Shown here in pieces: positions 252 through 43,686 of a DNA stretch of 64,000 nucleotides. The stretch is from Candidatus Levyibacteriota bacterium (GTDB lineage: Bacteria; Patescibacteriota; Microgenomatia; Levybacterales; UBA12049). The notes beneath the pieces were generated by a model. The model ran no database searches, had not been told where the DNA came from, and saw only the letters and a list, made by a program, of their open reading frames with translations. The position numbers and the translations under genes were made by a program. The DNA is taken from assembly GCA_963722305.1 (NCBI GenBank), contig CAVRKE010000002.1, positions 315,878-379,877 on the forward strand, written 5' to 3'. Position 1 is the first letter of the stretch. Each line of letters begins with the position of its first letter.

Positions 252-1436
252 ATGTCTGGTAAAAAGATTTTAGCGATCGGTTTTATTCTGGTTCTTTTGG
301 TGGCAATTCCTGTAACTGTTTATCTTGTCCAGCAGCAACAACGGACAAAAACCAACGCGGTGGCGGCCACAACGCTTAGCTTAACCCCTCCCCACAACCC
401 AATTACGCAAGGAAACCCGGTTACATTAACAGTGCATGTTGACCCCGGTACCAATCAGGTTTCATTTGTTAAATTTACGATTACTTATGATCCAAGCAAG
501 TTATCGGTTGTAGACAACAGCTTTAAAGTTCTCCCGATAAATGAATCCGATGGGAAAACCTATACACCCCACCTGCTTCAAGGGCCAATTTATAGCAACG
601 GCTCAATTGCGGCAACGATTTCTGTCGGACAAGAGGTACAATATGTGATCCAGAATCCAACCGATATTGCTTCGGTTACTTTTGATACTACCAATTTAAC
701 CGATACCACTACGGTTAGCATCGATACGACAAAATCCCAAGTTATGGCCATTGGCTTAACTGCTCAATTTAACGAAAACGTTCTGCTCACTGCTGAACCT
801 GCCGATATCACTGTCGGCACAAACATTACCGATACTCCAACCGACACACCAACCCCAACCGGGCAGCCAACCGATACACCAACGCCAACCGGGCAGCCAA
901 CCGATACACCAACGCCAACCGGGCAGCCAACCGACACGCCAACCCCAACCACTCAACAAACAAACGCCACCGGACCAACCTGTTCAAGTTTAAGCATTAA
1001 TCCCTCAACCAACGGAACCACTCCTTTTACGGTTAATTTGACGGCAACCGGACAAGACAATGCTTCCACCATCAGTAAAGTTACCTTTGATTTTGGTGAC
1101 GGACAAACTCAGGATATAACCAACTCGTCAGGCATCGGCACTAATTCGATTAGCGTTCTGCAATCTCATATTTACAATAATGCCGGAAATTATACTGCCA
1201 CAGCGGTTTTGACTGACGCCGCAGGCAGTGTCAGCCCGATAGGCAATTGCAGCCTAGCAATCAGCGTCAGCAGCACAATTGCATCATCAGGCACTACAAC
1301 AACCAATGTTTCAAATACCGTCGTTACCGAAACACCGGCCCCACTTGCACCAACAGGCCCAAGTCAACTGGTGACGGTTGGGTCAATCGGGGCAATCCTT
1401 ACCGTAATTGGAGCCGTACTACTTTTGGCTCTCTAA
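252..1436 (+). CDS. Secreted/cell-surface protein: N-terminal signal/TM helix, 4x PTDTPTPTGQ linker, PKD-like domain (TVNLTATG...FDFGDGQTQ...HIYNNAGNYTATAVLTD), C-terminal LAPTG motif + hydrophobic anchor
   Basis: ORF track. PKD signature FDFGDG and HxY..G.YT..V.TD seen in the translation. The tail ...PAPLAPTGPSQLVTVGSIGAILTVIGAVLLLAL resembles a sortase sorting signal. Confidence 0.6.
   Translation: MSGKKILAIGFILVLLVAIPVTVYLVQQQQRTKTNAVAATTLSLTPPHNPITQGNPVTLTVHVDPGTNQVSFVKFTITYDPSKLSVVDNSFKVLPINESDGKTYTPHLLQGPIYSNGSIAATISVGQEVQYVIQNPTDIASVTFDTTNLTDTTTVSIDTTKSQVMAIGLTAQFNENVLLTAEPADITVGTNITDTPTDTPTPTGQPTDTPTPTGQPTDTPTPTGQPTDTPTPTTQQTNATGPTCSSLSINPSTNGTTPFTVNLTATGQDNASTISKVTFDFGDGQTQDITNSSGIGTNSISVLQSHIYNNAGNYTATAVLTDAAGSVSPIGNCSLAISVSSTIASSGTTTTNVSNTVVTETPAPLAPTGPSQLVTVGSIGAILTVIGAVLLLAL
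829..955 (+). repeat. Roughly 4 tandem copies of a 30-nt unit (ccgatacaccaacgccaaccgggcagccaa) encoding PTDTPTPTGQ, inside the surface-protein gene
   Basis: Seen in sequence: near-identical 30-mers at 841-870, 871-900 and 901-930, with partial copies flanking. Confidence 0.85.
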
Positions 1437-3175
1437 CTTTGCAGCATTGACAGCAGCGCTTTCTGGGGAATTTCCACTTTCGAAACACTAATCATTCGCG
1501 ATTTACCTTTTTTTTGTGCTTCCAAAAGCTTATCTTTTCTGGTTCTGTCTCCACCTGACATTTTTGCCAAAACATCTTTCCTAAAAGGCGGAATCTCCGT
1601 CCGTGCCAAAATTTTTGCCCCAATTGCCGCCTGAATGATCTGCCGAAACTGTTGCTTCGGAAGATGTTGCTTCAGTTTATCAACTTTCTCTCTGGCCACA
1701 TACTCCGCTTCATCTTTATAAACAAGCTCCGCTAAAACATCAATCGGATTATCGTTGATAAGAATATCCATTTTCACCAAATTAGCCTGCCTAAAGCCGT
1801 TAATTTCGTAGTCAAGGCTGGCAAAACCCTGCGAAACGCTTTTCAGCTCGGAAGACAATCCCCGAATAAACATTGAGTATGGCATGTCATATTTTAAAAC
1901 CGCATTTTGTTTGTGGTATGCAATGTCCACAAGGCTGCCTTTTTTATTTTGCGCTACCGTCATTACCGCTCCGACATAAGTCGAGGGCACAAAAATCGTC
2001 AAAGCCATATACGGTTCGGAAATTATCCCTTCTTCTTCCTTGTATAAAACTCTGGGCATCGTCAAAAGGGGCTCTATCCCACTCTCCTGTTTTAACCGCT
2101 CTTTAACAATCTCTGCATGCAATAATCCCAAAAAACCAACCCTAAATCCGCTGCCCAAAAAGGCCGAATATTCATTAGCCACCGTCATTGAGCCGTCATT
2201 TAAAGACAATTTTGAGATGGCCTCCCGCAGATGAACGTATTCATTGGCAGTTTTTGGATAGACACCGAAAAAAACCATCGGTTTTGGAATTTGGTAACCT
2301 GCCAGCGGTTGAACACTTGAGATTTGAGATTTGAGATTTGAGATTTGCGTGATGGTGTCTCCAACCCTGGTTTTTCTGATATCTTTTATGCCGGTGACAA
2401 TGTAACCGATTTCTCCGGCAGTCAGTATGTCTTTGGCAACCAAAAACGGTGAAAAAAATCCGACTTCCGCAACATCAATTTTTGTTTTATTCTGGATAAA
2501 TTCAATTTTGTCGTGTTTTTTGACACTGCCGTCAACCAGTTTTGTAAAAATTACTACTCCCCTGTGCTCATCAAAAACCGCATCAAAAACCAATCCCCGA
2601 AGCACAGCATTTTCGTTAACGTTTGGCGGAGGAATTTTTTGAATAACCGCCTCAAGCAGCTCTTCGGCGTTTTCGCCGGTCTTGGCCGAAACATAATAAA
2701 TCTCTTCTTCCTTAAAACCAAACATTTCAATTAAGTCTTTTTTTACTTCTTCCGGTTTCGCTGTCGGAAGGTCGATTTTATTAATCGCCGGGATTAGCAC
2801 CAAACCCTCCTTTTTTGCAGAATTGAAATGCGCCACTGTCTGAGCCTGAATTCCTTTCGTGGCATCAACTAACAGTATCGCTCCCTCGCATGCGGCTAAT
2901 GTTCTGGAAACTTCATAGGAAAAGTCCATATGCCCCGGCGTATCAATCAGGTCAAGAACATAATCCTCCCCGTTGACTGCATATTTCATTCTCACCGGAG
3001 CAAGCTTGATAGTTATTCCCCTTTCTCTGGAAATCGGATTTTGGTCCAAAAATTGCTCCTGCAATTTATCTTTCTGAACAGTCCCGGTAATTTCCAAAAA
3101 CCTGTCCGCCAAGGTTGACTTACCGTGGTCAATGTGGGCAATAATGGCAAAATTTCGAATGTTTTTATAAGACAT
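1433..3175 (-). CDS. lepA: Elongation factor 4 (LepA), translational GTPase
   Basis: N-terminus NIRNFAIIAHIDHGKSTLADR (G1/P-loop), DTPGH, NKIDL. 580 aa. C-terminal LepA-specific region aligns with E. coli LepA (GDT[IL]T ... KLSLND ... GFLGLLH). Confidence 0.95.
   Translation of the reverse strand: MSYKNIRNFAIIAHIDHGKSTLADRFLEITGTVQKDKLQEQFLDQNPISRERGITIKLAPVRMKYAVNGEDYVLDLIDTPGHMDFSYEVSRTLAACEGAILLVDATKGIQAQTVAHFNSAKKEGLVLIPAINKIDLPTAKPEEVKKDLIEMFGFKEEEIYYVSAKTGENAEELLEAVIQKIPPPNVNENAVLRGLVFDAVFDEHRGVVIFTKLVDGSVKKHDKIEFIQNKTKIDVAEVGFFSPFLVAKDILTAGEIGYIVTGIKDIRKTRVGDTITQISNLKSQISSVQPLAGYQIPKPMVFFGVYPKTANEYVHLREAISKLSLNDGSMTVANEYSAFLGSGFRVGFLGLLHAEIVKERLKQESGIEPLLTMPRVLYKEEEGIISEPYMALTIFVPSTYVGAVMTVAQNKKGSLVDIAYHKQNAVLKYDMPYSMFIRGLSSELKSVSQGFASLDYEINGFRQANLVKMDILINDNPIDVLAELVYKDEAEYVAREKVDKLKQHLPKQQFRQIIQAAIGAKILARTEIPPFRKDVLAKMSGGDRTRKDKLLEAQKKGKSRMISVSKVEIPQKALLSMLQS
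2318..2347. repeat. Heptanucleotide microsatellite (tgagatt)x4 inside lepA; on the coding strand it encodes QISNLKSQIS
   Basis: Seen in sequence: tgagatttgagatttgagatttgagatt. The unit length is not a multiple of 3. Confidence 0.8.
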
Positions 3176-3186
3176 GTGTGGTTATT

Positions 3187-4854
3187 CTAAGGGTTAACAT
3201 GGCTTGCGTCAATCGTTTCTTCGCTACCTTTAAGAATTTGTCTCCAATCGCCCACCTTTTTAAACATTAAAATAAACATTTCAGCCTCTTTGACATCAAA
3301 CAGCCAGGTCAGGAAAAGATAAAGTAAAAGACCGATTGAACTGGAAATTCCGGTCAGTAAAATTAAATTAACAGTTTTCGTTGTATCAAACACTAATTGA
3401 TCTAAAAGCTTTATGGGAATATATAAAGCAAAGGCAGTAAAAAATGTTGCCAGAAAAATTTTGGAAACCGTGATTAAAAGCGGACGTTTGTTAAATCCTC
3501 CAACTTTTAAGTCAAGAAAAATAAATAAGACCAAAAAGTTAATAATCGAAGCAATTGAATAAGCAATTGCAATACCACCGACTCCTGCATGATAAAGGAA
3601 GATAAAACCGGCACCCATCAAGACCATCAAAGCCGTTGTTATTGCACCTATAATTAACGGCGTTCTTGTATCATGCAGCGCATAAAAACCTCTGGAAACT
3701 AGATATACTAGGGCTTGAGCAAAAATCGAAATACTAAAGAATGCCAGCGTTCTACCTGTTAAAACAGTAGCCGTCCAATCAAATTGTTCGGCTCCAAAGA
3801 TAAGTCTAACTATCGGAATTCTTAAAACCAGCAGCAACACCGAAACCGGCAGGACTAAATATAACATTTGGTTAAAACTGGTGATAAAAGTCACCTTAAA
3901 ATCCTCCAGCCGTTCTCTTTCTTTTGACAGAACTGGGAAAGCGGCCTGCGCTATTGCTTGTCCGAAGAGAGCAACTGGCGCAAAGGCAAGAGTTTGAGCG
4001 TAATCAAAGATTAGATAGTTTCTGCCTGGATTCTGTAAAAAAGAAACGAGTGTTACAATGATGATTGTTCCCAGTTGAAATACTGCAATCGAAATTGTTC
4101 TGGGCCAGATAAGTTTTAAAACATTTAATACACCCAAAGATTTAATTGACGTTAACGAAAGAGAAGGTTTAAAGGAAAAACCCATTTTTTTAGCCAATGG
4201 GATTTGAGCCAGAACGAATAACAGGGCTCCTATAACTACACCATAGGCGGCAGAATAGATTCCCCAGAACGACGAAAACAACACAATGCCGATAATTATT
4301 CCAAGATTATATAGCGCAGCTGCAAAACCGGGAATAAAAAAACGATTATATGATTGTAAGATTGCCGAAAGGAAACTACCAATGATAAAAAGTATCTCTC
4401 CAAAAATTACAATTCTGGTAAGATTAGTAAGTAAATCTATCTCTCCTTTTGAAAAACCCGGAGCCATAAGAGTTGAAAACTGTCTGGCGAAAATAAAAAG
4501 AATCAACGAGAAAAAAGCAAAAATTCCCAGACTTAAAAAAAGTAGTGTCGATGCAACCTTATGACCTTCATCTTCTTTGCCTTTAACGATATATTCCGAA
4601 AAAACCGGTATAAAGGCTGAGGATAAAGCACCCGCTATTAAAATTTGGAACAAAAAATCCGGCAATCTGGTAGACGCTAAGAAAATTCCGGAAGTATTTG
4701 AAGCGCCAAAAATAGCAACTAAAAGTCTTTGCCCGATAAGGCCCAAAACCTGCGAAAAGATAATCGTTGCCATGATTACGAAAGCCGCTGATAAAATGTT
4801 ATTTTGTCGTCTTAAAAGGAGGCTAATACCCTTCTTTAAAAAATCCTTTGGCAT
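3187..4854 (-). CDS. murJ: Lipid II flippase MurJ/MviN (MOP superfamily, ~14 TM)
   Basis: 555-aa polytopic membrane protein with a MurJ-like N-terminus (NILSAAFVIMATIIFSQVLGLIGQRLLVAIFGAS) and MurJ-like length/topology. Sits beside other envelope genes. Confidence 0.85.
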   Translation of the reverse strand: MPKDFLKKGISLLLRRQNNILSAAFVIMATIIFSQVLGLIGQRLLVAIFGASNTSGIFLASTRLPDFLFQILIAGALSSAFIPVFSEYIVKGKEDEGHKVASTLLFLSLGIFAFFSLILFIFARQFSTLMAPGFSKGEIDLLTNLTRIVIFGEILFIIGSFLSAILQSYNRFFIPGFAAALYNLGIIIGIVLFSSFWGIYSAAYGVVIGALLFVLAQIPLAKKMGFSFKPSLSLTSIKSLGVLNVLKLIWPRTISIAVFQLGTIIIVTLVSFLQNPGRNYLIFDYAQTLAFAPVALFGQAIAQAAFPVLSKERERLEDFKVTFITSFNQMLYLVLPVSVLLLVLRIPIVRLIFGAEQFDWTATVLTGRTLAFFSISIFAQALVYLVSRGFYALHDTRTPLIIGAITTALMVLMGAGFIFLYHAGVGGIAIAYSIASIINFLVLFIFLDLKVGGFNKRPLLITVSKIFLATFFTAFALYIPIKLLDQLVFDTTKTVNLILLTGISSSIGLLLYLFLTWLFDVKEAEMFILMFKKVGDWRQILKGSEETIDASHVNP

Positions 4855-4897
4855 ATATTGTGTTGTTTTTTACAGTATAGCATGCTAAAATAGCCGC

Positions 4898-5200
4898 ATG
4901 CCAGTCATAAAATCAGCTAAGAAAAAGCTAAGACAAGACAGAAAACGGGAAATAGTAAATAATCTTTTAAGAAAAGAGCTTAAAGACGCCATCAAAGGCG
5001 CACAAAAAACAAAAACCGCGGAAAAAGTCAGAAAAGCGGTTGTACTGGTAGACAAAGCAGTAAAAAGAAACTTAATCCACAAAAATAAAGCCGCCAGAAT
5101 TAAATCAAGACTGAGTAAGCTCGGAAAGCCCGCTGCAAAAGCCAAAGTCGCAACACCAAAAACAAAATCAGCCACTAAAAAGAAAACCCCGAAGAAATAA
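4898..5200 (+). CDS. rpsT: 30S ribosomal protein S20
   Basis: 100-aa highly basic protein starting MPVIKSAKKKLRQDRKR..., with KAVKRNLIHKNKAAR motifs typical of bS20. Confidence 0.9.
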   Translation: MPVIKSAKKKLRQDRKREIVNNLLRKELKDAIKGAQKTKTAEKVRKAVVLVDKAVKRNLIHKNKAARIKSRLSKLGKPAAKAKVATPKTKSATKKKTPKK

Positions 5201-5217
5201 ATCGCCCTGAAGTCCTT

Positions 5218-5553
5218 TTACTCCCAACTATGGCCAAGCTGGGTGAGGATAAGCCACACTTTTACTTCCCCGAGCTGCGGATACTCGGCTTTGATGTACT
5301 TTTGAGCATCCAGGCATATTTGGTCTTGCTTTTTTACTCTTTCCCCAAAAGCAAATGCAGTTATCTCAACTTCTACCACTCCTATCATGCCTGCTCCTTT
5401 CGTTTCAACCAATCTTACGCTTATGTCACCCTCTGTTAGCTTAATGTCTCCACAGGTAAGTTTCTCGGCAAGATAAGGTTTTAGTTTTAAGGCCAGCTCC
5501 CCTAAATCCTTCTTTTGTTCTTCTTTTGTGTAAAAAATGTTGGCTGTGGGCAT
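5218..5553 (-). CDS. Tautomerase-superfamily-like small protein (DUF1904-like). The likely start is the internal Met giving an N-terminal MPTANIF... (Pro-1)
   Basis: The ORF track gives 5218..5598. The internal Met at 5553 yields the Met-Pro N-terminus characteristic of tautomerase-fold proteins. Assignment rests on weak family resemblance only. Confidence 0.35.
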   Translation of the reverse strand: MPTANIFYTKEEQKKDLGELALKLKPYLAEKLTCGDIKLTEGDISVRLVETKGAGMIGVVEVEITAFAFGERVKKQDQICLDAQKYIKAEYPQLGEVKVWLILTQLGHSWE

Positions 5554-5650
5554 ACTATCTTGATTATAGCAAAACGAGGTCAATCTGTTACACGGCAATT
5601 ACCGGTCCGCAAATTTAAATATGTTTATAAAAACGCTCTCGTTTCTGCTT

Positions 5651-5685
5651 TGACAAACTTAAAAAAAACACTTAGACTAATCCTA
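5651..5685 (+). promoter_or_regulatory. Candidate promoter for the pilN-pilO operon: TTGACA (5651-5656) - 17 nt - TAGACT
   Basis: Seen in sequence, upstream of the ATG at 5688. Confidence 0.3.
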
Positions 5686-5687
5686 GT

Positions 5688-6254
5688 ATGGCGAAATCTT
5701 CCGCTTCGATAAATCTGTTGCGAAACGAAAATAAAGAAACTTTTGAACATATCATTGATTGGGCGGTAACCATCGGCAGAATACTGGTGATTGTAGTTGA
5801 GTTGGCAGCGCTGGCGGCTTTTCTTTACCGTTTTACGCTTGATAACAAGCTCCAGGATTTACAAACAGAAATCACGCAGAGACAAGCAATTGTGGCCTAT
5901 CAAAAAGACAGTGAAAACACCTACCGAAATCTCCAGCAAAGACTGTCAATTGCAGCTTCTTTTGGTAAAGTTGGCCAGCAAGATTTAAAAATACTTAAAG
6001 ATATTTTATCTTTTGCCCCGGATGGCTTCGCCTTTACATCTGTCGCCTTTGCTCCGGATAGAATGCAAGTTGAAGCAAACGTTAATTCCATTATCCCTTT
6101 AAGTATTTTTATCAATAAATTAAAGTCTTATCCTTTAATCGACACCGTCAGTTTAGACAAAATTGAGAATAAAACATCAAGTTCGGTCATTACTGTCGGA
6201 ATATCGACAACCTTTAAACAGCAAGGAGGAACAAATGCAAATTCCAACAATTAA
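5688..6254 (+). CDS. pilN: Type IV pilus assembly protein PilN-like (bitopic, N-in)
   Basis: N-terminal SINLL motif before a single TM helix (INLLP is characteristic of PilN), then a ~140-aa extracytoplasmic domain. Followed by an overlapping PilO-like gene. Confidence 0.6.
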   Translation: MAKSSASINLLRNENKETFEHIIDWAVTIGRILVIVVELAALAAFLYRFTLDNKLQDLQTEITQRQAIVAYQKDSENTYRNLQQRLSIAASFGKVGQQDLKILKDILSFAPDGFAFTSVAFAPDRMQVEANVNSIIPLSIFINKLKSYPLIDTVSLDKIENKTSSSVITVGISTTFKQQGGTNANSNN

Positions 6255-6882
6255 AAACTTACTTAGTGAAGCAAACAAACAACAGTATTCAAAATATCTG
6301 GCACTGATGCCGGATCTTAGACAGGAAAAGGCAAAGAAATTTACTACCATAGTGCTTACTTTAATTACCTCTATCATTCTTGGTCTTTTTGCAATCAGCC
6401 CGACTCTTTCCACTATCGCCAATTTGCAAAAACAAATTAATGATGACCAATTTGTTGATCAAAAACTGCAGGAAAAAATAAATGACCTTACTACCTTACA
6501 ACAGAATTATGCGGATATCCAAAATGATTTACCTGTAATCTATGCCGCAATCCCCAACTCAACCCAAATTCCCATTTTGGTTGGTGAAATACAATCTATT
6601 GCACAAGATTCCAGCTTAAAACTTGACAGTTTTCAAACGTATGAGGTTGATCTTTCAAAACCAACAAGTAAAAATTATTCTTCTTTTGATTTTGGGTTTT
6701 CCGGCGAAGGGACTTATCAGGACGTTATGAACTTCATGGATAAGCTGGTAAATTTTCAAAGAATAATTACCATTAGCAACGCTTCGATTTCCAAACAAAC
6801 CGACCAAAATTCCAACGAGCAAAATACCAACAGCGACAATTTACAGTTAAACATTAGAGGAACAGTATTTTTTAAACCGTAA
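6235..6882 (+). CDS. pilO: Type IV pilus assembly protein PilO-like. Start chosen at the ATG at 6235, which is preceded by AGGAGGA; the ORF track begins at 6163
   Basis: Coiled-coil N-terminus, a single TM helix (FTTIVLTLITSIILGLFAI) and a periplasmic domain. A strong SD (aggagga) sits 5 nt upstream of the ATG at 6235. The frame overlaps the pilN 3' end. Confidence 0.5.
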   Translation: MQIPTIKNLLSEANKQQYSKYLALMPDLRQEKAKKFTTIVLTLITSIILGLFAISPTLSTIANLQKQINDDQFVDQKLQEKINDLTTLQQNYADIQNDLPVIYAAIPNSTQIPILVGEIQSIAQDSSLKLDSFQTYEVDLSKPTSKNYSSFDFGFSGEGTYQDVMNFMDKLVNFQRIITISNASISKQTDQNSNEQNTNSDNLQLNIRGTVFFKP

Positions 6883-6886
6883 ATAT

Positions 6887-7234
6887 ATGAAGAAAAACGA
6901 TATCTTATCAATACTTATCCCATTATTCATATTTGTCATTGCCTGGATTGTGTTCAGTGTTCATCACAGTATTGTTACATCTACTATTTCCCAAACTTTA
7001 AATATGCAAATTAGCCCAATATCGCCAAGTTTTGACACAAATACGGTAGCCGCGCTTAAAAATAGACAAAATGTTACTCCTATTTACGACCTTACTGTCC
7101 CCGCTGGGAGCATCGTTACTCCCGCAACCCCATCTGCCCAAGTCACACCCACTCCAACTCCTACTGTGGCCATCCAGCCGGTTAGCTCAGGTAGCGCAAG
7201 TCAAGCAACATCTGGAGGGAGTTTATCGCAATGA
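6887..7234 (+). CDS. Small membrane-anchored protein with a Pro/Thr-rich tail; its stop overlaps the next start (ATGA)
   Basis: ORF track. N-terminal TM helix (ILSILIPLFIFVIAWIVF). No recognisable domain. Confidence 0.4.
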   Translation: MKKNDILSILIPLFIFVIAWIVFSVHHSIVTSTISQTLNMQISPISPSFDTNTVAALKNRQNVTPIYDLTVPAGSIVTPATPSAQVTPTPTPTVAIQPVSSGSASQATSGGSLSQ

Positions 7235-8667
7235 GAAAAAGTTTCTGGAACAAAAAAATTCCAACCCTGCTTGGACTGCTCCTTATTACAATCGGTATTG
7301 GCATCACAACCTTTTTAGTAAACGAGGGTGCAATATTTAAATCTAATGCCAGCACAACCGAACAGCCGCAAAATGTGCGAATCACCAATATCACGGATAG
7401 CTCTTTTTCCGTCTCATATGCGACCGAAGACTTGGTAATCGGTTCTTTAAATTATGGTAACGATAATAAACTGGGGAAATCGGCGCTTGATGACAGAGAC
7501 CAGCAAAGCGGAAATTTAACGACACATAAAATTCACAATATTACAGTCAGAAATCTTAATGCCCAGACAACATATTATTTTTCCATTACCAGCGGGCAAA
7601 ATAATTATCTTAACGGAAACCAACTGTTTGCGGTTACCACCGGCTCAACTCTTTCGGGAACCCCCCCCAAGCAAAACCCGATCAGCGGTAAAGTGATACT
7701 CTCCGATGGAAGCCCACCGAAAGAGGCCATTATCTATTTTACTGCCGATAACTCTCAAGTTGTTTCAACTTTGGTAAAAGCAGATGGCTCTTATATTCTT
7801 CCTTTAAATTCGCTGCGCACCAGCGATTATTCAGCCTATTATAATTTTTCACCCGCTATAAATTTAAAAATGTTAGTTTACGGGGATTCTTTAACTTCAA
7901 ACGTTTCTTTATCTCTTAATCAAACCAGCCCTGTTCCCACCATTATCCTTTCCAAAGATTATGATTTTAGAAATGGCCAGTCTCCAAGTACTTCTGCTCC
8001 CCAAACGTCAGCAAGTTTTCCCTCTTTTTCCAGCACATCATCGGGAACATTGAAAATATTAACTCCGCAAAAAGATCAAGGGTTTACGGACCAGCAACCT
8101 CTGTTTAGAGGAACCGGCCAACCAAACCAAAGTGTTAAAATAATTATCCATTCCGCTCAAATTGTCCAAGGCATTGTCAATACAGATCAAAACGGAATTT
8201 GGAATTTTAGACCTACTAGCACTCTCTCTCCCGGTACGCACACCATCACCGTTCAAACTGAAGACTCTTCCGGAATTTTACAAACTCTAACTCAGTCCTT
8301 CGTTGTTTATGCGGCCGGCCAGCAAATTAATCCTCCGGCTCCATCACCCACCTCAACTCCTACTCCCACACCTGTTTTAATTTCAAAAATTACGCCAACT
8401 CCAACAGTTTCGCCGACCCCTACTCCAACTGTGGTACCAACCATTGCTTTTGTATCCTCTATCTCTCAAACGCCAACACCAACGCCAACACAAATACCGA
8501 CATCAACACCGACAACAAAAGGCGGTATCATTATTAGCCCAACCCAAAAACTATTGTCTCCAACAGGTAATCCCTCTATAATGACAGCGGGAATTGTAGG
8601 CGCTGTTATTAGCCTGGTTGGTGGCCTCCTTTTCCTTCTGACCCGCGGGAGCATTCAAGCATTATGA
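7231..8667 (+). CDS. Large cell-surface protein: N-terminal TM/signal, FN3/Ig-like beta domains, PT-rich linker, C-terminal LSPTG + TM anchor
   Basis: ORF track. Tail ...KLLSPTGNPSIMTAGIVGAVISLVGGLLFLLTRGSIQAL. PT-rich segment PTPTPVLISKITPTPTVSPTPTPTVVPT. Confidence 0.55.
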   Translation: MRKSFWNKKIPTLLGLLLITIGIGITTFLVNEGAIFKSNASTTEQPQNVRITNITDSSFSVSYATEDLVIGSLNYGNDNKLGKSALDDRDQQSGNLTTHKIHNITVRNLNAQTTYYFSITSGQNNYLNGNQLFAVTTGSTLSGTPPKQNPISGKVILSDGSPPKEAIIYFTADNSQVVSTLVKADGSYILPLNSLRTSDYSAYYNFSPAINLKMLVYGDSLTSNVSLSLNQTSPVPTIILSKDYDFRNGQSPSTSAPQTSASFPSFSSTSSGTLKILTPQKDQGFTDQQPLFRGTGQPNQSVKIIIHSAQIVQGIVNTDQNGIWNFRPTSTLSPGTHTITVQTEDSSGILQTLTQSFVVYAAGQQINPPAPSPTSTPTPTPVLISKITPTPTVSPTPTPTVVPTIAFVSSISQTPTPTPTQIPTSTPTTKGGIIISPTQKLLSPTGNPSIMTAGIVGAVISLVGGLLFLLTRGSIQAL

Positions 8668-9953
8668 AAATCGCAGTTATCGGAGCCGGTTTTACCGGTC
8701 TCTCCGCCGCCTATGAATTGACTAAGCAAAAGCACAACGTCACTGTCTTTGAAAAGGATGCAATCCCGGGTGGCCTGGCTATCGGCTATTGGGAAAAAGG
8801 CTGGGACTGGTCTTTAGAAAAACATTATCACCATTGGTTCACAAACGATAAGAGCATTCTTACCCTTGCTCAGGAAATAAAACATGAGGTGGTTATAAAA
8901 AGGCCAAAAACATCGGTTTTTGTCAATGGCCAGATTTATCAACTTGATTCACCACTTTATGTTTTAAAATTTCCCCTGCTTTCACTTTTAGAAAGGCTAA
9001 GGATGGGGATGGCAATTGCAATGATGAAGTACAACCCCTTTTGGCAACCGCTTGAAAAATATAATGCCACTTTTACTCTTCCTAAGCTGATGGGCAGAAA
9101 AGCTTACAACCTGATTTGGGAAGCATTATTTATGAATAAATTCGGGAAGTTTGCCGACAATATTTCTCTGGCTTGGTTTTGGGCAAGAATTAGAAAGAGA
9201 ACTCCTTCCCTTGCTTATCCAAAAGGCGGATTTCTTGAGTTTGCCAAAGCCTTGACCAAACAAATTAAAAAAAACGGAGGCAAATTTTATTTCGGTACTG
9301 AAGTTCTGGGACTCTCCTTTACTACTAAACCCGAATTGAAAATTAGAGACATTAATAATTTAAAATTGAAAATTGAAAATTTTGATGCCGTAATTGTTAC
9401 TCTTCCGTCCTATGTATTTCTAAAAATTGCCCCACCATTACCAAAAGAATACACGGAAAAACTACAACAATTAAAACACTTAGGAGCAACCAGTTTAGTG
9501 TTAAGACTAAATAGACCTTTTTTTAAGGACAACACTTATTGGCTAAATGTTTGCGACAAAACTTCACCGGTGATGGCAATCGTTGAACACACCAACTACA
9601 TGGACAAAAGATTTTATAATAATGAGCATTTACTTTATCTGGGAAATTATAAGTCGGCGGATGACAAATATTTTTCGCTGAATAAAGACGAAATATTACA
9701 GTTATTTAAACCTTATTTAAGAAAAATAAATCCCGATTATGCCGAAAACATTATTGGCTATCAGTTTTTTAAAGACCCTTTTGCCCAACCGGTAATTCCC
9801 ATCAATTACTCCAAATTAATTCCGCCTTTTGCAACGCCGCTTAAAAATGTATACCTTGCAAACATTGAACAAGTTTATCCTTGGGACAGAGGCACTAACT
9901 ATGCGGTTGAGCTTGGCCAAAGAATCGTAGAAGAAGTTTTGAAAAATGCTTAA
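8664..9953 (+). CDS. FAD/NAD(P)-binding oxidoreductase (amine-oxidase / UDP-galactopyranose-mutase-like Rossmann)
   Basis: N-terminal MKIAVIGAGFTGLSAAYEL ... GGLA (GxGxxG plus downstream GG motif). The precise family cannot be fixed without a search. Confidence 0.65.
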   Translation: MKIAVIGAGFTGLSAAYELTKQKHNVTVFEKDAIPGGLAIGYWEKGWDWSLEKHYHHWFTNDKSILTLAQEIKHEVVIKRPKTSVFVNGQIYQLDSPLYVLKFPLLSLLERLRMGMAIAMMKYNPFWQPLEKYNATFTLPKLMGRKAYNLIWEALFMNKFGKFADNISLAWFWARIRKRTPSLAYPKGGFLEFAKALTKQIKKNGGKFYFGTEVLGLSFTTKPELKIRDINNLKLKIENFDAVIVTLPSYVFLKIAPPLPKEYTEKLQQLKHLGATSLVLRLNRPFFKDNTYWLNVCDKTSPVMAIVEHTNYMDKRFYNNEHLLYLGNYKSADDKYFSLNKDEILQLFKPYLRKINPDYAENIIGYQFFKDPFAQPVIPINYSKLIPPFATPLKNVYLANIEQVYPWDRGTNYAVELGQRIVEEVLKNA

Positions 9954-11601: not shown

Positions 11602-11603
11602 TT

Positions 11604-13181: not shown

Positions 13182-13182
13182 T

Positions 13183-15438
13183 ATGAATTTAGCGGATATT
13201 GTCTATATTCTGCAATGGTTCCTGGCTTTTTTTGCAATTGGCATTGCTTTTCTTCCGCTGACGTTTTCCATTTTTAATGGTTTTAAAGACAAAGGTTATA
13301 TTTTTTCAAAAATTATCGGGGTGGGGATTCTAACTTATTTTGTTTTTCTGCTTGGCACTTTAAGAATTGCTAAATTTTCTACCACTACTGTCTATCTTTC
13401 ACTGTTTCTTCTGTTTTTGCTTAATTATGCAATTTTTATCTATAAAAAACAGCACCTGTTAACTTTTATTCGCGGTAAAATACAAATTTTTGTGGCAGAA
13501 GAATTGGTCTTTTTAGTCACCCTCATTTTTTGGTCATTTATCAGAAGCAATATGCCGGATATTCATGGCCTGGAAAAATTTATGGACTTTGGCTTCTTGA
13601 ACTCAATCTTAAGAAGCGATTATTTTCCGACAAAAGACATGTGGTATACACCCCTTTCCATCAATTATTATTATTTTGGCCATCTAATTACTGCCGTTTT
13701 GACCAAACTGACAGCAATTCCTTCTTTTATCAGCTACAACTTGATGCTGGCGGCTTTATTCGCTTTCACCTTTACCCAGTCTCTATCCATCGGCATGAAC
13801 CTTTTCGATAAAGCCAGATTTTCCATAAAATCTATTCTGGCCGGGCTTATCTCCGGAATTCTTGTCTCCCTGGGGGGGAATTTAACTACAATTTATGCTT
13901 TTTTTGCCCCGTATATTCCCGCCGATAAAGCGGTTCCTTTTTGGCAACTGCCGTTTTTACCTTTTAGTTTCCCCAATAGCTATTGGTATCCAAACGCCAC
14001 CCGTTTTATTCCTTTTACCATTCATGAATTCCCGATTTATTCTTTTGTTGTTTCGGATTTACACGGTCATGTTTTAGACATCCCCTTTGTATTACTGACA
14101 ATTGCCCTGCTGTTTTTAGTGATATCAAAGGCTGAAGCCCTAAACTCAAAACGAGCTCATAAAGCTACGCCCAAAAATTCAAAATTGTTTAAAATCTTAA
14201 ACTTTATGAACAGGGATTTATTTAAAAATTGCCCCTCGATCCTGAGCTCGGGCTCGAAGGATAAATCCGAAATTGGAATTCTAATCTTAATGAGTTTTTT
14301 ATTGGCAATTATGTACATGACCAACGCCTGGGACGGATTAATCTATCTTTTATTGGCAATGCTAATTTTGGCTGCACTGAATTTTTACAAAGTGGGCAGA
14401 AAGTGGATTTTATCCGGCAAATATTTATTTGAGATTTTACAAAAATACTTAATCCTCTTCTTAGGTTTTTTTATCTTCGCTCTTCCTTTTAATTTAAACT
14501 TTAAACCTTTTGTCTCGGGCGTCGGCGTAATTTGTGCTCCAAAATTTTTGACTAACATCGGTAAAATCGGCCCATTTCTTTTCGAAGCGAATCATTGCCA
14601 AAGGTCTCCTTTATGGCAACTTATAATGCTTTATGGGTTCTTCTATTTTTTCGTTATCTCGTTTTTAGTCTTTTTAAAATTTAAGCGGAAATATAAATTT
14701 ACAGTTAGCGACCTTTTCGTTTTGGTTTTAATAATTTTGTCAACGATTTTAATCATCGTACCCGAATTTATTTACGTTAAAGATATTTATCCGACCTATT
14801 ACCGGGCAAACACCATGTTTAAACTGGTTTACGAAGCCTTCATCATGCTATCTTTATCTTCCGGCTACATCTTGATAAAATTAATTTCCTCAATTAAGAG
14901 AAAAAAACTGTTGATTCCCTTTGGCGTGATAACGGCAATTTTGCTTTCTTTAGTTTTGGTTTATCCTGTTTTTGCGATTAATGGTTACTATGGAAATTTA
15001 AAAACATATCATGGTTTAAATGGGATAACTTATTTGACAAAAAGCTATCCGGGTGATTACAACTTAATTAACTGGTTAAACAAATATATTCAGGGCCAAT
15101 CGGTAATTCTTGAGGCAAACGGAGATTCTTATACGGATTACGCCAGAATCTCCGCCAATACCGGGCTGCCGACGGTTATCGGTTGGCCGGTCCACGAATG
15201 GCTTTGGCGCGGAACTTACAATATTGTTGCCCCAAGAATTGCCGACGTCCAAACTTTATACACGACAAACGACCTTATTCTTGCAAACAATTTAATTAAA
15301 ACATACAACATCTCTTATGTCGTTGTCTCCGATCTTGAAAGGCAAAAATATCCGGCACTAAATGAATTAACTTTTATAAAACTGGGGAGGTTAATCTACC
15401 AAAATGGCAACACCAGGCTGTATAAAATTAACCGCTAA
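13183..15438 (+). CDS. Large polytopic membrane protein (751 aa), GT-C-like/DUF2298-like with a C-terminal extracytoplasmic domain
   Basis: ORF track: more than 15 predicted TM helices. Co-linear with two GT-C genes. Family assignment is tentative. Confidence 0.5.
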   Translation: MNLADIVYILQWFLAFFAIGIAFLPLTFSIFNGFKDKGYIFSKIIGVGILTYFVFLLGTLRIAKFSTTTVYLSLFLLFLLNYAIFIYKKQHLLTFIRGKIQIFVAEELVFLVTLIFWSFIRSNMPDIHGLEKFMDFGFLNSILRSDYFPTKDMWYTPLSINYYYFGHLITAVLTKLTAIPSFISYNLMLAALFAFTFTQSLSIGMNLFDKARFSIKSILAGLISGILVSLGGNLTTIYAFFAPYIPADKAVPFWQLPFLPFSFPNSYWYPNATRFIPFTIHEFPIYSFVVSDLHGHVLDIPFVLLTIALLFLVISKAEALNSKRAHKATPKNSKLFKILNFMNRDLFKNCPSILSSGSKDKSEIGILILMSFLLAIMYMTNAWDGLIYLLLAMLILAALNFYKVGRKWILSGKYLFEILQKYLILFLGFFIFALPFNLNFKPFVSGVGVICAPKFLTNIGKIGPFLFEANHCQRSPLWQLIMLYGFFYFFVISFLVFLKFKRKYKFTVSDLFVLVLIILSTILIIVPEFIYVKDIYPTYYRANTMFKLVYEAFIMLSLSSGYILIKLISSIKRKKLLIPFGVITAILLSLVLVYPVFAINGYYGNLKTYHGLNGITYLTKSYPGDYNLINWLNKYIQGQSVILEANGDSYTDYARISANTGLPTVIGWPVHEWLWRGTYNIVAPRIADVQTLYTTNDLILANNLIKTYNISYVVVSDLERQKYPALNELTFIKLGRLIYQNGNTRLYKINR

Positions 15439-16556
15439 GGCGCAGGCGTTGGTGTTGGAGAAACAGAACAATTCCCTTTGCTAATTTCGCAGGCGATGTA
15501 TTGTTGAATTTCCGAAAAATTCCCGTTACCGGTTCTGGGAATTAACGTCCAGGCATAATCATAATCACTGGTAAGCGGTGGGTTTAGCAAAAGACCCGGG
15601 CGCCCGGTTGTATCGTCCCCCTGATCAATAACCACGCTTTGGATCTTTGCATTGCGCATCTTTTCTGCCAGCCTGACAAAATCATCAAATTCACTTTGTT
15701 GAATATCCGTATCGATACTGCCCTGTAAAACCGTATAAAGGCTGATTATTTTCGCCGGGTTGATTAAAGTTTGGGCAGACAGCACTTTGTTTTTAAAAGC
15801 AGTGATTACTTTTTCCTGTCTCTTGCTTCTGGCAAAATCGCTGGCCTCAATTGGCTGGGACGCATGTCTTGAGCGGACAAATTCTAAAGCTGTTTCCCCA
15901 TCCATGTGTTGCAGACCTTTGTCAAAATGGATGTGTTTATACCGACAGGGGAAATCCGTAATCGCCTGGTCGGCCGAATCGCTGGCCATTGCTTGAAGTT
16001 CTGCTTGTGTATGTCCACAGGTATCGTCCTCTTTTCCGTCAATCGGGTACTGGTAATCGTCAAAAGTGTTATCAACATTAATATCTAAACCGCCGATAAT
16101 ATCGACGGCTTTAACAAAACCCGAAAAATCAATTCTGACCCCGTAATCAATATTTTGTCCGCTAATTTCCTTCATTACCGCTTCCGCTTCAATTAAACCT
16201 CCGCCTTTTCTGACCGATTCTCCGTCGGCGTATGCGTCATTGACTTTTTTAACGCTGCCTGTTAAGTCGGGAACCCAGAGATCTCTGGGGATAGAAACTA
16301 ATGTCACCTTATTATTTTTAGGGTCGAGGCTAGCAAAAATAATTGTGTCTGTTAAGTTTGGCCCATCATGACTTCCACCGCCGATACCAAGAATTAAAAG
16401 ATTTATACGATTATCGGTTGTCTGCTTTAAATCGATACCCCGATTAAAAACCAGCTGGAACAAAAACGGATAAAAACTGGCGGTTTTGGCCACAAAAATT
16501 ACTACCAAAACAACCACAAAAACCCCCAAGATAGCTAAAGCTTTCTTTTTAAGCAT
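15435..16556 (-). CDS. LytR-CpsA-Psr (LCP) family cell-wall glycopolymer phosphotransferase
   Basis: N-terminal TM, then NLLILGIGGGSHDGPNLTDTIIFASLDPKNNKVTLVSIPRDLWV, the canonical LCP core. Start placed at the internal Met (16556) to avoid a 41-nt overlap with tpiA; the ORF track gives 16589. Confidence 0.8.
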   Translation of the reverse strand: MLKKKALAILGVFVVVLVVIFVAKTASFYPFLFQLVFNRGIDLKQTTDNRINLLILGIGGGSHDGPNLTDTIIFASLDPKNNKVTLVSIPRDLWVPDLTGSVKKVNDAYADGESVRKGGGLIEAEAVMKEISGQNIDYGVRIDFSGFVKAVDIIGGLDINVDNTFDDYQYPIDGKEDDTCGHTQAELQAMASDSADQAITDFPCRYKHIHFDKGLQHMDGETALEFVRSRHASQPIEASDFARSKRQEKVITAFKNKVLSAQTLINPAKIISLYTVLQGSIDTDIQQSEFDDFVRLAEKMRNAKIQSVVIDQGDDTTGRPGLLLNPPLTSDYDYAWTLIPRTGNGNFSEIQQYIACEISKGNCSVSPTPTPAP

Positions 16557-17217
16557 TTTCGACAATTTTGAGAAATTCCTCCGCGTCAAGGCTCGCTCCT
16601 CCTACCAACACACCGTTAATGTTTGGTTTTTCGGTAAAACTTCTGACGTTTGTGGATTTAACGCTCCCGCCGTAGAGGACTTGAAGATCGCTTCTATTTA
16701 TCTTGATTGCTTGGGCGACAGTATCCGCGCTTTCCGGCGTATCGGGATTACCCGTGCCAATGGCAAAGACCGGTTCATAGGCCACAATTCTTACACCCTG
16801 AGGGATCGGCGTTTCTTTCCCCTGCACTAGAAAAATTGGAATAAGTCCGTATTTCAATGCCAGTTGCACTTTATTTGACAGCATATCTTCTGTTTCGCTA
16901 AAGTTTTTTCTTCTTTCCGAATGACCAACCAAAACAAACTTTGCAAAATCCTTAATTTGTTTTGCGTTTACTTCCCCTGTAAAAGCTCCTTCGTCAAAAG
17001 GCGAAACGTTTTGAGCACCGATGGCAGCATTAACATTATTAGAAGAAAAATATGAGAAAAAGCTGAAAAGTTGGGTAAAAGCAGGACAAACAATCACCTC
17101 TTTTTGCTCTGGGATAAGCCGTAGATCGTTTATTTTTTTAAAACTTTCTAACCAGTTTTTAGCCTCGTTTTCGTTCTTGTAAGACTTTAAATTCGCGACT
17201 ATAAAAAGCTTGTGCAT
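16549..17217 (-). CDS. tpiA: Triosephosphate isomerase
   Basis: VLVGHSERR active-site motif and a (GGA)SL motif near the C-terminus. 222 aa, a short TIM. Confidence 0.85.
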   Translation of the reverse strand: MHKLFIVANLKSYKNENEAKNWLESFKKINDLRLIPEQKEVIVCPAFTQLFSFFSYFSSNNVNAAIGAQNVSPFDEGAFTGEVNAKQIKDFAKFVLVGHSERRKNFSETEDMLSNKVQLALKYGLIPIFLVQGKETPIPQGVRIVAYEPVFAIGTGNPDTPESADTVAQAIKINRSDLQVLYGGSVKSTNVRSFTEKPNINGVLVGGASLDAEEFLKIVENA

Positions 17218-17279: not shown

Positions 17280-19136
17280 ATGAATAACGACTTTCTCAAG
17301 GACTTGAATAAAGAACAATTAGAAGCGGTCAGACAGCAAAACGGACCAATGATAATTTTAGCCGGCGCCGGCTCGGGAAAAACCCGGGTTTTGACTTATA
17401 AAGTGATTAATCTGATTAAGCAGGGCGTTGATGCAGACAACATTCTGATGGTGACTTTTACCAATAAGGCCGCCAACGAGATGAAGGAAAGAATGCAAAG
17501 ATTTTTCCAAAAAGACGTTCAAAAACTATCTAACCTTCCGACAATTTCTACTTTTCATGCCCTGTGTGCCAAAATTTTAAGGATTGACGGACATTTTTTG
17601 GGAATCCCCAAAAACTTTGTCATCTATGATGACCAGGACCAAAAAGACGCAGTCAAACAAGCATTTGAGCTCTTGGGAATTTCCGCCAAAGAATACAAAC
17701 CGTCATCGGTTCTGAATAATATTTCCCAGGCCAAAAACGAATTGATTGATGATAATGAATATCCAAATTATGCCCGCGGGCATTTTCAGGAAATCGTGGC
17801 GAGGACTTACGTCGTTTATCAAAAGCTATTAAAAGAAAATGCCGCCCTGGATTTTGACGATTTGATTTTAAAGACAGTTGAGCTGTTTAAAAAATTCCCG
17901 GAGGTCTTGGAAAAATACCAAAATAAATTTAAATATATTCTGGTTGACGAATACCAGGACACCAACCATGCCCAGTACCTACTGACAAAAATGCTGAGCA
18001 GTAAATGGAACAATATTTGCGTTGTCGGCGATTTCTCGCAAAGCATTTATAGTTTCCGGGGTGCAGACTTTTTAAATTTGGCTAAATTCAGGGAGGATTT
18101 TAAAAATACCAAAACCTTTTCTCTTTCGCAAAACTACCGCTCTACCCAAAAAATTTTGGACGCCGCAACGGCAGTTATTTCTAAAAACAGCACCCATCCT
18201 ATTTTGAAGCTGTGGACTGAAAATGAAAAAGGTGAAGAAGTAACGGTTTACGAATCACTTAACGAACAAAAAGAAGCCGACTTTATTGTCGACAAAATTC
18301 TGGAATTAAAATATCAAAATCCGAACCTTCGGAATTATGATTTTTGTGTTTTATACCGCACCAATGCCCAATCAAGGGCGATTGAAGAGGTGTTTATTCA
18401 CCGCGGCGTCCCCTACATTCTAATCGGCGGCACCAGATTTTACGAAAGGAAGGAAATAAAAGACGTTCTATCTTTTTTAAGAGTTCTGGCAAATCCCAAA
18501 GATAAAGTTTCTCTAAAAAGAATCGGAAAATTAGGTAAAGGAAGGCTGGCCAAATTTGGCCAATTCCAAAGTGAATTTTTGGGAAAAAATACCAGCGATT
18601 TTGCAACGATTGACATTTTGGACAGTGTCTTAAAGGCAACCGAATACCTTACTTTGTATGATGAAAAAGACGAAGAGGACGCACAAAGATTAGAGAATAT
18701 CAAGGAACTGCGCTCGGTGGCGATTGAATTTACGGACCTTAATCAATTTTTGGAAAATGTTTCTCTGGTTGAGCAGGAATATATGCCCGACCATGTAAGA
18801 GACGAGCAAGGCAAAAAAGACGCCGTCAACATGATGACTTTGCATGCGGCAAAAGGTTTGGAATTTAAAGTGGTGTTTATGGTAGGCATGGAAGAAGGTT
18901 TGTTTCCTCATTCAAGAAGCATGATGGATAAAAACGAGCTGGAGGAAGAAAGAAGACTTTGCTATGTCGGCATGACCAGAGCCAAGGAGAAATTATTCCT
19001 GACATATTCCCGAAAAAGACTTTTTTTCGGGCAAAAGACGACAAATATTGTTTCAAGGTTTATACTAGAATTACCGGAAGGAACATTGGAAAATAGTTTG
19101 AACAAGATGCAAAGTGACGCTCCGGATTATTTATGA
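17280..19136 (+). CDS. uvrD: ATP-dependent DNA helicase UvrD/PcrA (SF1)
   Basis: LNKEQLEAV...ILAGAGSGKTRVLT (Walker A), DEYQDTN (motif II), VGDFSQSIYSFRGA, and a C-terminal YVGMTRAKEKL. Confidence 0.9.
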   Translation: MNNDFLKDLNKEQLEAVRQQNGPMIILAGAGSGKTRVLTYKVINLIKQGVDADNILMVTFTNKAANEMKERMQRFFQKDVQKLSNLPTISTFHALCAKILRIDGHFLGIPKNFVIYDDQDQKDAVKQAFELLGISAKEYKPSSVLNNISQAKNELIDDNEYPNYARGHFQEIVARTYVVYQKLLKENAALDFDDLILKTVELFKKFPEVLEKYQNKFKYILVDEYQDTNHAQYLLTKMLSSKWNNICVVGDFSQSIYSFRGADFLNLAKFREDFKNTKTFSLSQNYRSTQKILDAATAVISKNSTHPILKLWTENEKGEEVTVYESLNEQKEADFIVDKILELKYQNPNLRNYDFCVLYRTNAQSRAIEEVFIHRGVPYILIGGTRFYERKEIKDVLSFLRVLANPKDKVSLKRIGKLGKGRLAKFGQFQSEFLGKNTSDFATIDILDSVLKATEYLTLYDEKDEEDAQRLENIKELRSVAIEFTDLNQFLENVSLVEQEYMPDHVRDEQGKKDAVNMMTLHAAKGLEFKVVFMVGMEEGLFPHSRSMMDKNELEEERRLCYVGMTRAKEKLFLTYSRKRLFFGQKTTNIVSRFILELPEGTLENSLNKMQSDAPDYL

Positions 19137-20597: not shown

Positions 20598-20887
20598 TAT
20601 AATTTATAAATCATTTCACCGATAATTTGCTTTTTTGAAATATAGCCAAAGCTCCGGCTGTCTAAACTGTCACTGTTATTATCCCCTTCAACAAAATATT
20701 TCTCGTTGTTAACTTTGGCAATCCTTTTTACCAAAACTTTGCCCGACTTATCTTTAAATGCCACTATATCATTAATTTGGGGATTTTTAAACCAGTAAGG
20801 ACAATTGCTTACTAAAACTGCCGCTCCATTCTTGATTAGAGGCTCCATACTGTGGCCGATAACTTTAAACCTGGCTAAAACAAGCAT
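20597..20887 (-). CDS. sodX: S26-family signal-peptidase-like protease, candidate NiSOD maturation peptidase SodX
   Basis: GHSMEP (Ser box) and GDN..DS.DSR (box E) of S26 peptidases. 96 aa. Immediately downstream of, and overlapping, the nickel SOD gene. Confidence 0.7.
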   Translation of the reverse strand: MLVLARFKVIGHSMEPLIKNGAAVLVSNCPYWFKNPQINDIVAFKDKSGKVLVKRIAKVNNEKYFVEGDNNSDSLDSRSFGYISKKQIIGEMIYKL

Positions 20888-39139: not shown

Positions 39140-39149
39140 GGCTAGTAAA

Positions 39150-41087: not shown

Positions 41088-41128
41088 CCCCTATCTTTTA
41101 TTAATTGAGGTATAATTAGAATAACTGT

Positions 41129-41950: not shown

Positions 41951-41971
41951 CTGCCCCCAAAAATTTAGGAC

Positions 41972-43681: not shown

Positions 43682-43686
43682 TATTT

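Follow-up and report, generated by a model that had tools for sequence, protein, structure and literature searches.

The closest known system to the one described here is the canonical LPXTG sorting signal with the housekeeping sortase of Gram-positive bacteria. This signal, modelled by TIGR01167 and PF00746, combines an L-x-x-T-G pentapeptide with a C-terminal hydrophobic segment of about 20 residues, and ends in a cluster of basic residues (PMC5148588). Class E sortases, described for Actinobacteria, recognise LAXTG instead, and their substrates, among them the chaplins of Streptomyces and those of Corynebacterium, likewise carry basic tails (PMC5148588). Here we analyse two putative surface proteins, called protein 1 and protein 2, that are encoded in a 64,000-nucleotide stretch of contig CAVRKE010000002.1 (hereafter the window) from a Candidatus Levyibacteriota bacterium, and that are probably ordinary sortase substrates of this Levybacteria-like (Microgenomatia) bacterium, which belongs to the Candidate Phyla Radiation (CPR). 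They resemble canonical substrates in the L-x-x-T-G motif with its hydrophobic segment, in a candidate signal sequence, the Pro-rich stalk and the beta-sandwich passenger domains, and in an orthologue consensus of LPPTG; they differ in having Ala or Ser at position 2 of the motif, in a basic tail that is absent or minimal, in falling below both models and in their CPR host, and lineages related to them swap the Thr for Ala/Ser, Gly or Pro.

Members of the CPR are believed to live in attachment to other cells, for which their type IV pilus machine is central, and most of their surface proteins lack annotation. According to Meheust et al. 2019, more than half of the CPR genomes have a sortase family, described there as 'near ubiquitous in Microgenomates', and the supplement lists a PF04203/K07284 family (about 231 aa, one transmembrane helix) that is marked as CPR-enriched. 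A closed Microgenomates genome encodes a sortase (PMC7143001), Peribacteria encode sortase A, and 'sortase motifs' have been noted on CPR surface proteins (PMC5220378). Sortase and its motifs are thus already in the CPR literature and are the expected surface-display system of the lineage.

Both window proteins end in an LPXTG-type pentapeptide followed, three residues on, by a hydrophobic segment. The C-terminus of protein 1 reads ...PAPLAPTG-PSQ-LVTVGSIGAILTVIGAVLLLAL, with 22 uncharged residues in the hydrophobic segment, and that of protein 2 reads ...KLLSPTG-NPS-IMTAGIVGAVISLVGGLLFLLT-RGSIQAL, also with 22 hydrophobic residues after the pentapeptide. An earlier note on this DNA, made from the sequence alone, had described two proteins ending in L[A/S]PTG plus a hydrophobic tail, and we reproduced both open reading frames (ORFs) and both C-termini exactly; its remark that only the second tail is basic also holds, R472 being the sole basic residue after the helix. 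Leu, Thr and Gly are present in both pentapeptides, and position 2 is Ala in protein 1 and Ser in protein 2, never Pro. Across the 19,965 residues of the window's 58 largest non-overlapping ORFs, the pattern L[PAS]xTG has exactly two occurrences, where composition predicts about 1.5 anywhere. Since both sites lie directly upstream of C-terminal hydrophobic segments, of which the window ORFs have only six, the co-location of motif and C-terminal helix is not a matter of chance.

The strongest support comes from the orthologues. In 102 of the 120 relatives of protein 1 listed, the pattern [LM][PA]x[TS]G stands at exactly 25-26 residues from the C-terminus; this spacing after the Gly holds in 102/102 of these tails, 94/102 of which end in AL. 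Position by position the family shows L88/M10, P79/A11, P80, T88/S8 and G100 (in %), with LPPTG in 57 members and LAPTG in 6, and its Gly-rich hydrophobic segment follows the conserved pattern GSIGAIxTxIGAxLL. For protein 2 we examined 255 tails from 90%- and 50%-identity representatives and obtained L67/I16, P68/A15, P65, T56/P27/A7/S7 and G99.6 (in %, n=255), the Pro at position 4 being overstated, as about 20 of its 70 calls are an alignment artefact of a subclade with LAPGG tails and its real share is about 20%. LPPTG is again the commonest form, and Lys or Arg is found near the C-terminal end in about half of the family. In an alignment of 31 protein-2 sequences, mean column conservation was 0.87 for the pentapeptide, 0.48 for the stalk that precedes it and 0.65 for the hydrophobic segment. 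The closest relatives share the non-Pro residue at position 2 (P0122 and P0002 with LSPTG, P0123 with LAPTG), and slightly more distant relatives have LPPTG. Some orthologue tails are recognised by the curated models, that of L044 (LPKTG) scoring 23.8 with TIGR01167 (cut-off 15.9) and 25.2 with PF00746 (cut-off 20), and that of L008 (LPPTG) scoring 15.9 and 19.7 against the same cut-offs. Because the orthologue consensus, taken over some 240 Microgenomatia relatives, is LPPTG, we read LAPTG and LSPTG as position-2 variants of canonical LPXTG and not as a class E signature. The covalent anchoring proposed in the earlier note is therefore supported in so far as the tails are of the sorting-signal type, with a conserved pentapeptide behind an unconserved linker and with orthologue tails that pass curated models.

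A further line of evidence is the variation of the motif between lineages, which we followed in 67 related loci from a genome scan of species representatives (1.25 Mb). Relatives of the two proteins are labelled Levybacteria/Levyibacteriota, Woesebacteria, Microgenomates or 'Patescibacteria group', the best species-representative locus being L042, from a Levyibacteriota metagenome-assembled genome (61% identity). In these genomes the same tail type occurs on at least three unrelated families, namely those of protein 1 and protein 2 and a third family of small Pro/Thr-rich proteins of 140-290 aa (Table 1), which end in LPEAG, LPDAG, LPVAG or LPVSG followed by a helix with no basic tail. In Levybacteria-type genomes Thr precedes the Gly in the protein-1 and the protein-2 families alike (11 T/T pairs, the window among them), in Woesebacteria-type genomes Ala/Ser takes this place in both protein 2 and the third family, and in four genomes (L020, L022, L023 and L034) Pro does so in both families. 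Such co-variation over unrelated substrates is the pattern expected from one shared, lineage-specific enzyme; the comparison is uncorrected for phylogeny, and Thr and Pro forms are mixed within some genomes (L015, L021 and L029). Pro and Ala forms of position 2 also occur together in single genomes, as LPPTG with LAPTG in L004 and LAPTG with LPASG in L005.

Individual lineages depart further from the consensus. In one Levybacteria subclade (a subset of P0069-P0120; L006, L007, L009, L025 and L039) LPPTG-NPS is replaced by LAPGG-NSPGPDGK, and other lineages have Pro before the invariant Gly, in IAPPG, ISSPG and LPAPG. Many of the Microgenomatia records among the loci (for example L007, L011-L013 and L018) are titled 'uncultured Gammaproteobacteria bacterium', which, given their gene content, looks like a submission-level mislabel.

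The rest of each protein also suits wall anchoring. Protein 1 and protein 2 are laid out as candidate signal sequence, beta-sandwich domains, Pro-rich stalk and sorting signal, a layout that, as read from the sequences, is of the classical Gram-positive wall-anchored type. Both N-termini combine a basic n-region with a long, unusually conserved hydrophobic core, and in both an S-x-A-like site contains an Ala that is invariant; from this we infer that they are Sec signal sequences with a signal-peptidase site. The N-terminus of the protein-1 family (window 252-359) has the signature KK-(I/L)L-x-GF-x-VLL-x-AIP-(L/V)-TV-(Y/F)-LVQQQQK-TK-x-x-A, whose conservation is far above that of ordinary signal peptides and which may be a lineage-specific export signal.

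A sortase gene was sought directly. As the earlier note had stated, none was detected in the window: Staphylococcus aureus SrtA gave a best E of 0.43 against its six-frame translation, Pfam scans of about 50 window ORFs returned no PF04203, and a regular expression of the TLxTC type was also empty. Against 68 related loci (the 67 from the genome scan among them; 1.25 Mb), SrtA gave no match at E<=1 and a catalytic-motif regular expression returned false positives only. With no sortase near the 67 orthologous loci, the gene is not syntenic with these substrates; that this genome carries one elsewhere is assumed from its reported near-ubiquity in Microgenomates.

Several observations weigh against a sortase as the enzyme that reads these tails. 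The basic C-terminal cluster is absent from protein 1 and reduced to a single Arg in protein 2, and Lys or Arg occurs within the last 12 residues in 0/102 members of the protein-1 family. Neither TIGR01167 nor PF00746 picked up the window tails at E<=10, and three marks of a strict LPXTG signal are thus missing from the window proteins: Pro at position 2, the basic tail and a score above the model cut-offs. The residue before the invariant Gly can be Ala/Ser, Gly (LAPGG) or Pro (IAPPG, ISSPG); to our knowledge no sortase cleaves a Pro-Gly bond, and we know of no sortase motif of the LAPGG or PG form. The hydrophobic segment is well conserved in its own right. The literature is the basis for the presence of the enzyme, as the searches of the window and of about 10 kb around the orthologous locus in 67 genomes showed no sortase. 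Most of this would also suit tails that are plain, uncleaved membrane anchors in which [LI][PA]x[TP]G-N/P-S serves as a juxtamembrane hinge or helix cap, an explanation further favoured by Gly alone being invariant while Thr is often replaced by Pro, Gly or Ala. We nevertheless consider it unlikely, as it does not account for Leu at position 1 and Pro/Ala at position 2 being kept within otherwise unconserved low-complexity linkers, for LPPTG being the commonest form, for orthologue tails that pass TIGR01167 and PF00746, or for a motif type that co-varies by lineage in unrelated proteins from a lineage where sortase is reported as near-ubiquitous. At least in the 'PG' lineages, however, the tails may be uncleaved anchors.

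The other explanations concern which enzyme would act on the tails. The earlier note had proposed a class E (LAXTG) signal, and protein 1, with Ala at position 2 and a tripartite tail, does resemble the class E substrates; moreover position 2 is non-Pro in both window proteins, as it is in their closest relatives, which hints at a local shift of specificity, and the only sorting-signal model that touches the protein 1 tail is the NCBIfam LAVTG model, with a weak match (E 0.14), the NCBIfam/Pfam scan of the protein 2 tail alone giving nothing relevant. This proposal was not supported by the comparison with orthologues and is now improbable: protein 2 has Ser, both families are dominated by LPPTG, with Pro at 79% and 68% against Ala at 11-15%, Pro and Ala forms are mixed in single genomes, and the lineage is Patescibacteria, a phylum other than that of the class E substrates with their basic tails. 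Pro at position 2 is, besides, disfavoured by class E enzymes (PMC5148588). A different sorting system altogether, either a rhomboid-type 'rhombosortase', for which Gly-rich signals are the substrate, or a CPR-specific peptidase keyed on the invariant Gly and the helix, would make sense of Gly as the sole invariant residue, of the LAPGG subclade with its resemblance to GlyGly-CTERM, and of a Gly-rich conserved hydrophobic segment without a basic tail. We regard it as very improbable, given that the majority motif is textbook LPXTG and the basic cluster of GlyGly-CTERM is missing, that PEP, PGF and terminal GG signatures are missing from both proteins and NCBIfam sorting-signal models outside the LPXTG type gave no match, and that no rhomboid or exosortase gene was found among the window ORFs scanned with Pfam. 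The Ig-like/FN3 domains together with an LPXTG-type tail could finally recall the subunits of a pilus polymerised by a class C sortase; there is hardly any likelihood of this, since both proteins lack the YPK pilin motif as well as an E-box (ET.AP.GY), no pilus-specific sortase is adjacent in the 67 loci, and the neighbouring pilus genes are of the type IV kind (PilN/PilO), which is a different machinery. For contrast, a 273-aa secreted protein of the window (41129-41950, +) combines a signal peptide and a C-terminal hydrophobic helix with no LPXTG-like motif (…RNPAAGRIIQLG…).

If the two proteins are sortase substrates, as we favour, their route to the wall can be sketched in steps that are all drawn from established sortase biology (PMC5148588). 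Each protein would be exported by Sec through its conserved N-terminal signal sequence, with cleavage probably after the invariant Ala, and the C-terminal hydrophobic segment would keep it anchored in the membrane. The Thr-Gly bond of LAPTG or LSPTG would then be attacked by the Cys of a membrane sortase, whose gene would lie elsewhere in the genome, and transfer to the lipid II peptide would lead to covalent attachment to peptidoglycan. With its disordered Pro/Thr stalk reaching across the wall, each protein would present its folded domains on the outside, and the Ala or Ser at motif position 2 would be lineage variants within a family whose consensus is LPPTG.

Protein 2 is also distinguished by its position. 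It belongs to a co-directional string with genes for a PilN-like protein, PilO and a conserved 115-aa ORF (Table 1). The 115-aa ORF and protein 2 share 4 nt where the one stops and the other starts (7234/7231), and PilO and the 115-aa ORF abut (6882/6887). The earlier note had placed protein 2 directly behind pilN-pilO, which is inaccurate here, as the 115-aa ORF (6887-7234) intervenes, whereas PilO is directly followed by protein 2 in 19/67 loci. The PilN-like ORF gave no Pfam match at E<=0.01; its orthologues carry INLLP or INLL followed by a transmembrane helix. The length of PilO is 215-239 aa depending on the start codon, the gene call giving 215 aa and the longest ORF beginning at 6163. 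A consensus scan, whose promoter and terminator counts were no higher than in shuffled sequence, found a promoter-like site upstream of the PilN-like gene and no terminator-like site inside the string.

The pilN-pilO-(115 aa)-protein 2 block is kept in about 60/67 related genomes, across Levybacteria, Woesebacteria and Blackburnbacteria, with variable downstream genes. Over the 67 loci PilN is followed by PilO in 63, PilO by the 115-aa ORF in 45, and the 115-aa ORF by protein 2 in 46. With the block so widely conserved, it is plausible that protein 2 has a functional link to the type IV pilus platform: its gene would be transcribed together with pilN, pilO and that of the 115-aa membrane protein, and protein 2 would probably act at or near the platform. 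The pilus link drawn in the earlier note can thus be kept as regards the conserved pilN-pilO block and dropped as regards a sortase-polymerised pilus. In the PilM-PilN-PilO(-PilP) alignment subcomplex of diderms and monoderms the likeness lies in a PilN-like gene and pilO standing directly upstream of protein 2 in one string; it differs here in that no pilM, pilB, pilC or pilin gene is adjacent to pilN-pilO. As far as we know, none of the alignment complexes described so far contains an Ig-domain protein anchored to the wall, which leaves protein 2 with no named counterpart. One sequence, P0160, was considered as an apparent paralogue with another genomic context and rejected, as it proved to come from the same locus.

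The domain layout given in the earlier note, a PKD domain in the first protein and an FN3-like domain in the second, was upheld and extended by a cohesin-like domain in protein 1 and by Big_13 and CarboxypepD_reg matches in protein 2, the latter weak (Pfam scan). Pfam Cohesin PF00963 was found on many orthologues of protein 1, in which the Pro/Thr repeat stalk sits between the cohesin-like and PKD domains. The ScaE-type scaffoldin of Ruminococcus flavefaciens is a sortase-anchored cohesin, and protein 1 likewise joins a cohesin-like domain to a sortase-type C-terminal anchor; protein 1 differs from it in having a PKD domain as well, and its cohesin similarity is to the ScaB type II domain (3GHP), at only 8e-7. 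Protein 1 has exactly two cysteines, Cys244 and Cys333, both invariant and flanking the PKD domain, and a VKOR-family gene is found in the window (36029-36448, -). An MdbA/VKOR disulfide pathway has been described for CPR surface proteins, and the two cysteines together with the VKOR gene are consistent with it.

For protein 2, an AlphaFold model computed from an alignment of 31 orthologues predicts a helix at residues 5-31, three confident beta-sandwiches, disorder at 365-436 and a helix at 449-472. The predicted local distance difference test score (pLDDT) averages 71 overall, with 10-residue block means of 73-95 in the three domains and values <50 in the stalk. A Foldseek search of the model against the PDB gave generic tandem-FN3 matches only and no clue to function. 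Searches found 896 cluster representatives at E<=1e-30, a count that takes in giant Big_13-repeat adhesins matching the Big_13 domain only.

Table 1 Features of the window and of related loci (positions in window nucleotides unless marked aa; third family in the coordinates of each locus)
Feature	Position	Strand	Remarks
Protein 1	252..1436	+	394 aa; ends ...PAPLAPTGPSQLVTVGSIGAILTVIGAVLLLAL
Protein 1, candidate signal sequence, conserved N-terminal	aa 1-36		invariant Ala36
Protein 1, cohesin-like domain	about aa 40-190		family profile vs PDB 3GHP, 8e-7
Protein 1, tandem 30-nt repeat	837..950	+	3.8 copies, 94% matches; encodes TDTPTPTGQP stalk
Protein 1, PKD domain	aa 248-328		profile match 3.1e-9
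Protein 1, LAPTG pentapeptide	1344..1358	+	LPXTG-type, Ala at position 2 (P3)
Protein 1, C-terminal hydrophobic segment	1368..1433	+	LVTVGSIGAILTVIGAVLLLAL; extends to final residue; no basic tail
Promoter-like site upstream of PilN-like gene	5650-5678		TTGACA-17-TAGACT
PilN-like	5688..6254	+	188 aa; N-terminal INLL motif, one transmembrane helix, extracytoplasmic domain
PilO	6235..6882	+	PF04350 2.6e-15; GspM 1.2e-6
115-aa ORF, conserved	6887..7234	+	N-terminal transmembrane helix, P-I-x-P-x-F-D-T core, Pro/Thr/Ser tail
Protein 2	7231..8667	+	478 aa; ends ...KLLSPTGNPSIMTAGIVGAVISLVGGLLFLLTRGSIQAL
Protein 2, candidate signal sequence, conserved	aa 1-40		invariant Ala40
Protein 2, FN3-like domain	aa 45-136		weak fn3/Pur_ac_phosph_N match
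Protein 2, second beta-sandwich	aa 151-245
Protein 2, Big_13 Ig-like domain	aa 275-359		1.7e-10
Protein 2, Pro/Thr stalk	aa 365-436		disordered
Protein 2, LSPTG pentapeptide	8554..8568	+	LPXTG-type, Ser at position 2 (P3)
Protein 2, hydrophobic helix and short tail	8578..8664	+	IMTAGIVGAVISLVGGLLFLLT then RGSIQAL; one basic residue, R472
FAD amine oxidase	8664..9953	+	starts overlapping protein 2 stop
PMT_2 GT-C glycosyltransferases, two	9946-11601, 11604-13181	+
DUF2298	13183-15438	+
LytR-CpsA-Psr (LCP) glycopolymer-to-peptidoglycan transferase	15435..16589	-	9e-33; convergent with the 8664-15438 genes
FemAB-family peptidyltransferase	19133..20086	+	PF02388, 5.1e-26
Third family	L045-L064, about 12,000-14,000 per locus		1-3 kb downstream of protein-2 orthologue; Woesebacteria-type genomes

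Downstream of protein 2, the genes at 8664-15438 are packed with overlapping or abutting stops and starts, an arrangement that recurs in most Levybacteria loci. The Pro/Thr stalks may be O-glycosylated by the products of the DUF2298 gene and of the PMT_2 genes, which are protein-mannosyltransferase-like, in this group. A comparable case is GspA of Actinomyces oris (Wu et al. 2014, cited in PMC11623550). This LPXTG glycoprotein is reportedly modified by way of an LCP enzyme and only then anchored by sortase. The likeness is that of an LPXTG-type, Ser/Thr/Pro-rich protein beside glycosyltransferases (PMT_2 x2, DUF2298) and an LCP gene; the glycosyltransferase families differ. MurJ is also encoded in the window and, together with the LCP and FemAB genes, fits a Gram-positive-type envelope. 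Enzymes of the FemAB family build the interpeptide bridge of lipid II, the usual sortase acceptor, and the FemAB gene would thus imply such a bridge in this organism.

The remainder of the window holds further genes of envelope or surface character. Seven tandem paralogues of 570-670 aa occupy 41972-54704 (+); the Pfam scan covered three of the seven, of which those at 41972-43681 and 45528-47537 join C-terminal TPR repeats to a GT-C membrane domain of PMT_2/TMEM260-like type and that at 49387-51168 gave no match at E<=0.001. They are preceded by two GH130 mannoside phosphorylases (37310-41087), and for a small genome the share given over to protein mannosylation by the genes from 37310 to 54704 is unusually large. 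An F1Fo ATP synthase operon follows within 54789-64000 (+), and after it two ORFs, one at 60536-61915 and one running from 61996 to past the window end, each of which opens with a MerR-like helix-turn-helix; the one from 61996 continues with a transmembrane helix and then a long Gly/Thr/Ser/Asn-rich, fibre-like region of higher GC with no Pfam match. At 20597-21384 (-) lies a nickel superoxide dismutase-like ORF, with an N-terminal HCDIPC motif read from the sequence, adjoining a small peptidase of the S26/S24 type, probably the protease that matures it.

These results leave the current picture of sortase biology unchanged. The features worth recording are the missing or minimal basic tail, the drift of the motif between lineages, and the class-wide link of protein 2 with pilN-pilO. 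A more far-reaching combination of them, which we hold to be rather doubtful, would be a dedicated four-gene Microgenomatia module, pilN-pilO-(115 aa)-protein 2, in which a sortase-anchored Ig-domain protein on its Pro/Thr stalk ties the type IV pilus platform to peptidoglycan, together with a variant CPR sorting signal that lacks the basic tail. If true, the module would functionally replace, in a cell that lacks an outer membrane, the link that PilP/PilQ make to the wall in diderms, and the variant signal, with an invariant Gly and a lineage-specific preceding residue (Thr, Ala/Ser, even Pro), would point to CPR-specific sortases with shifted specificities.

For the lineage itself, two large class-wide 'hypothetical' families gain the label of probable wall-anchored surface proteins, one cohesin-like with PKD and the other with triple Ig/FN3 domains. 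A motif definition for further finds can be given as [LIM]-[PAS]-x-[TSA]-G followed by about 25 residues, often with no charged tail, and the drift of this motif between lineages is a natural experiment on sortase specificity. Finally, wall anchoring and the type IV pilus machine may be linked, as the constant place of protein 2 behind pilN-pilO suggests.

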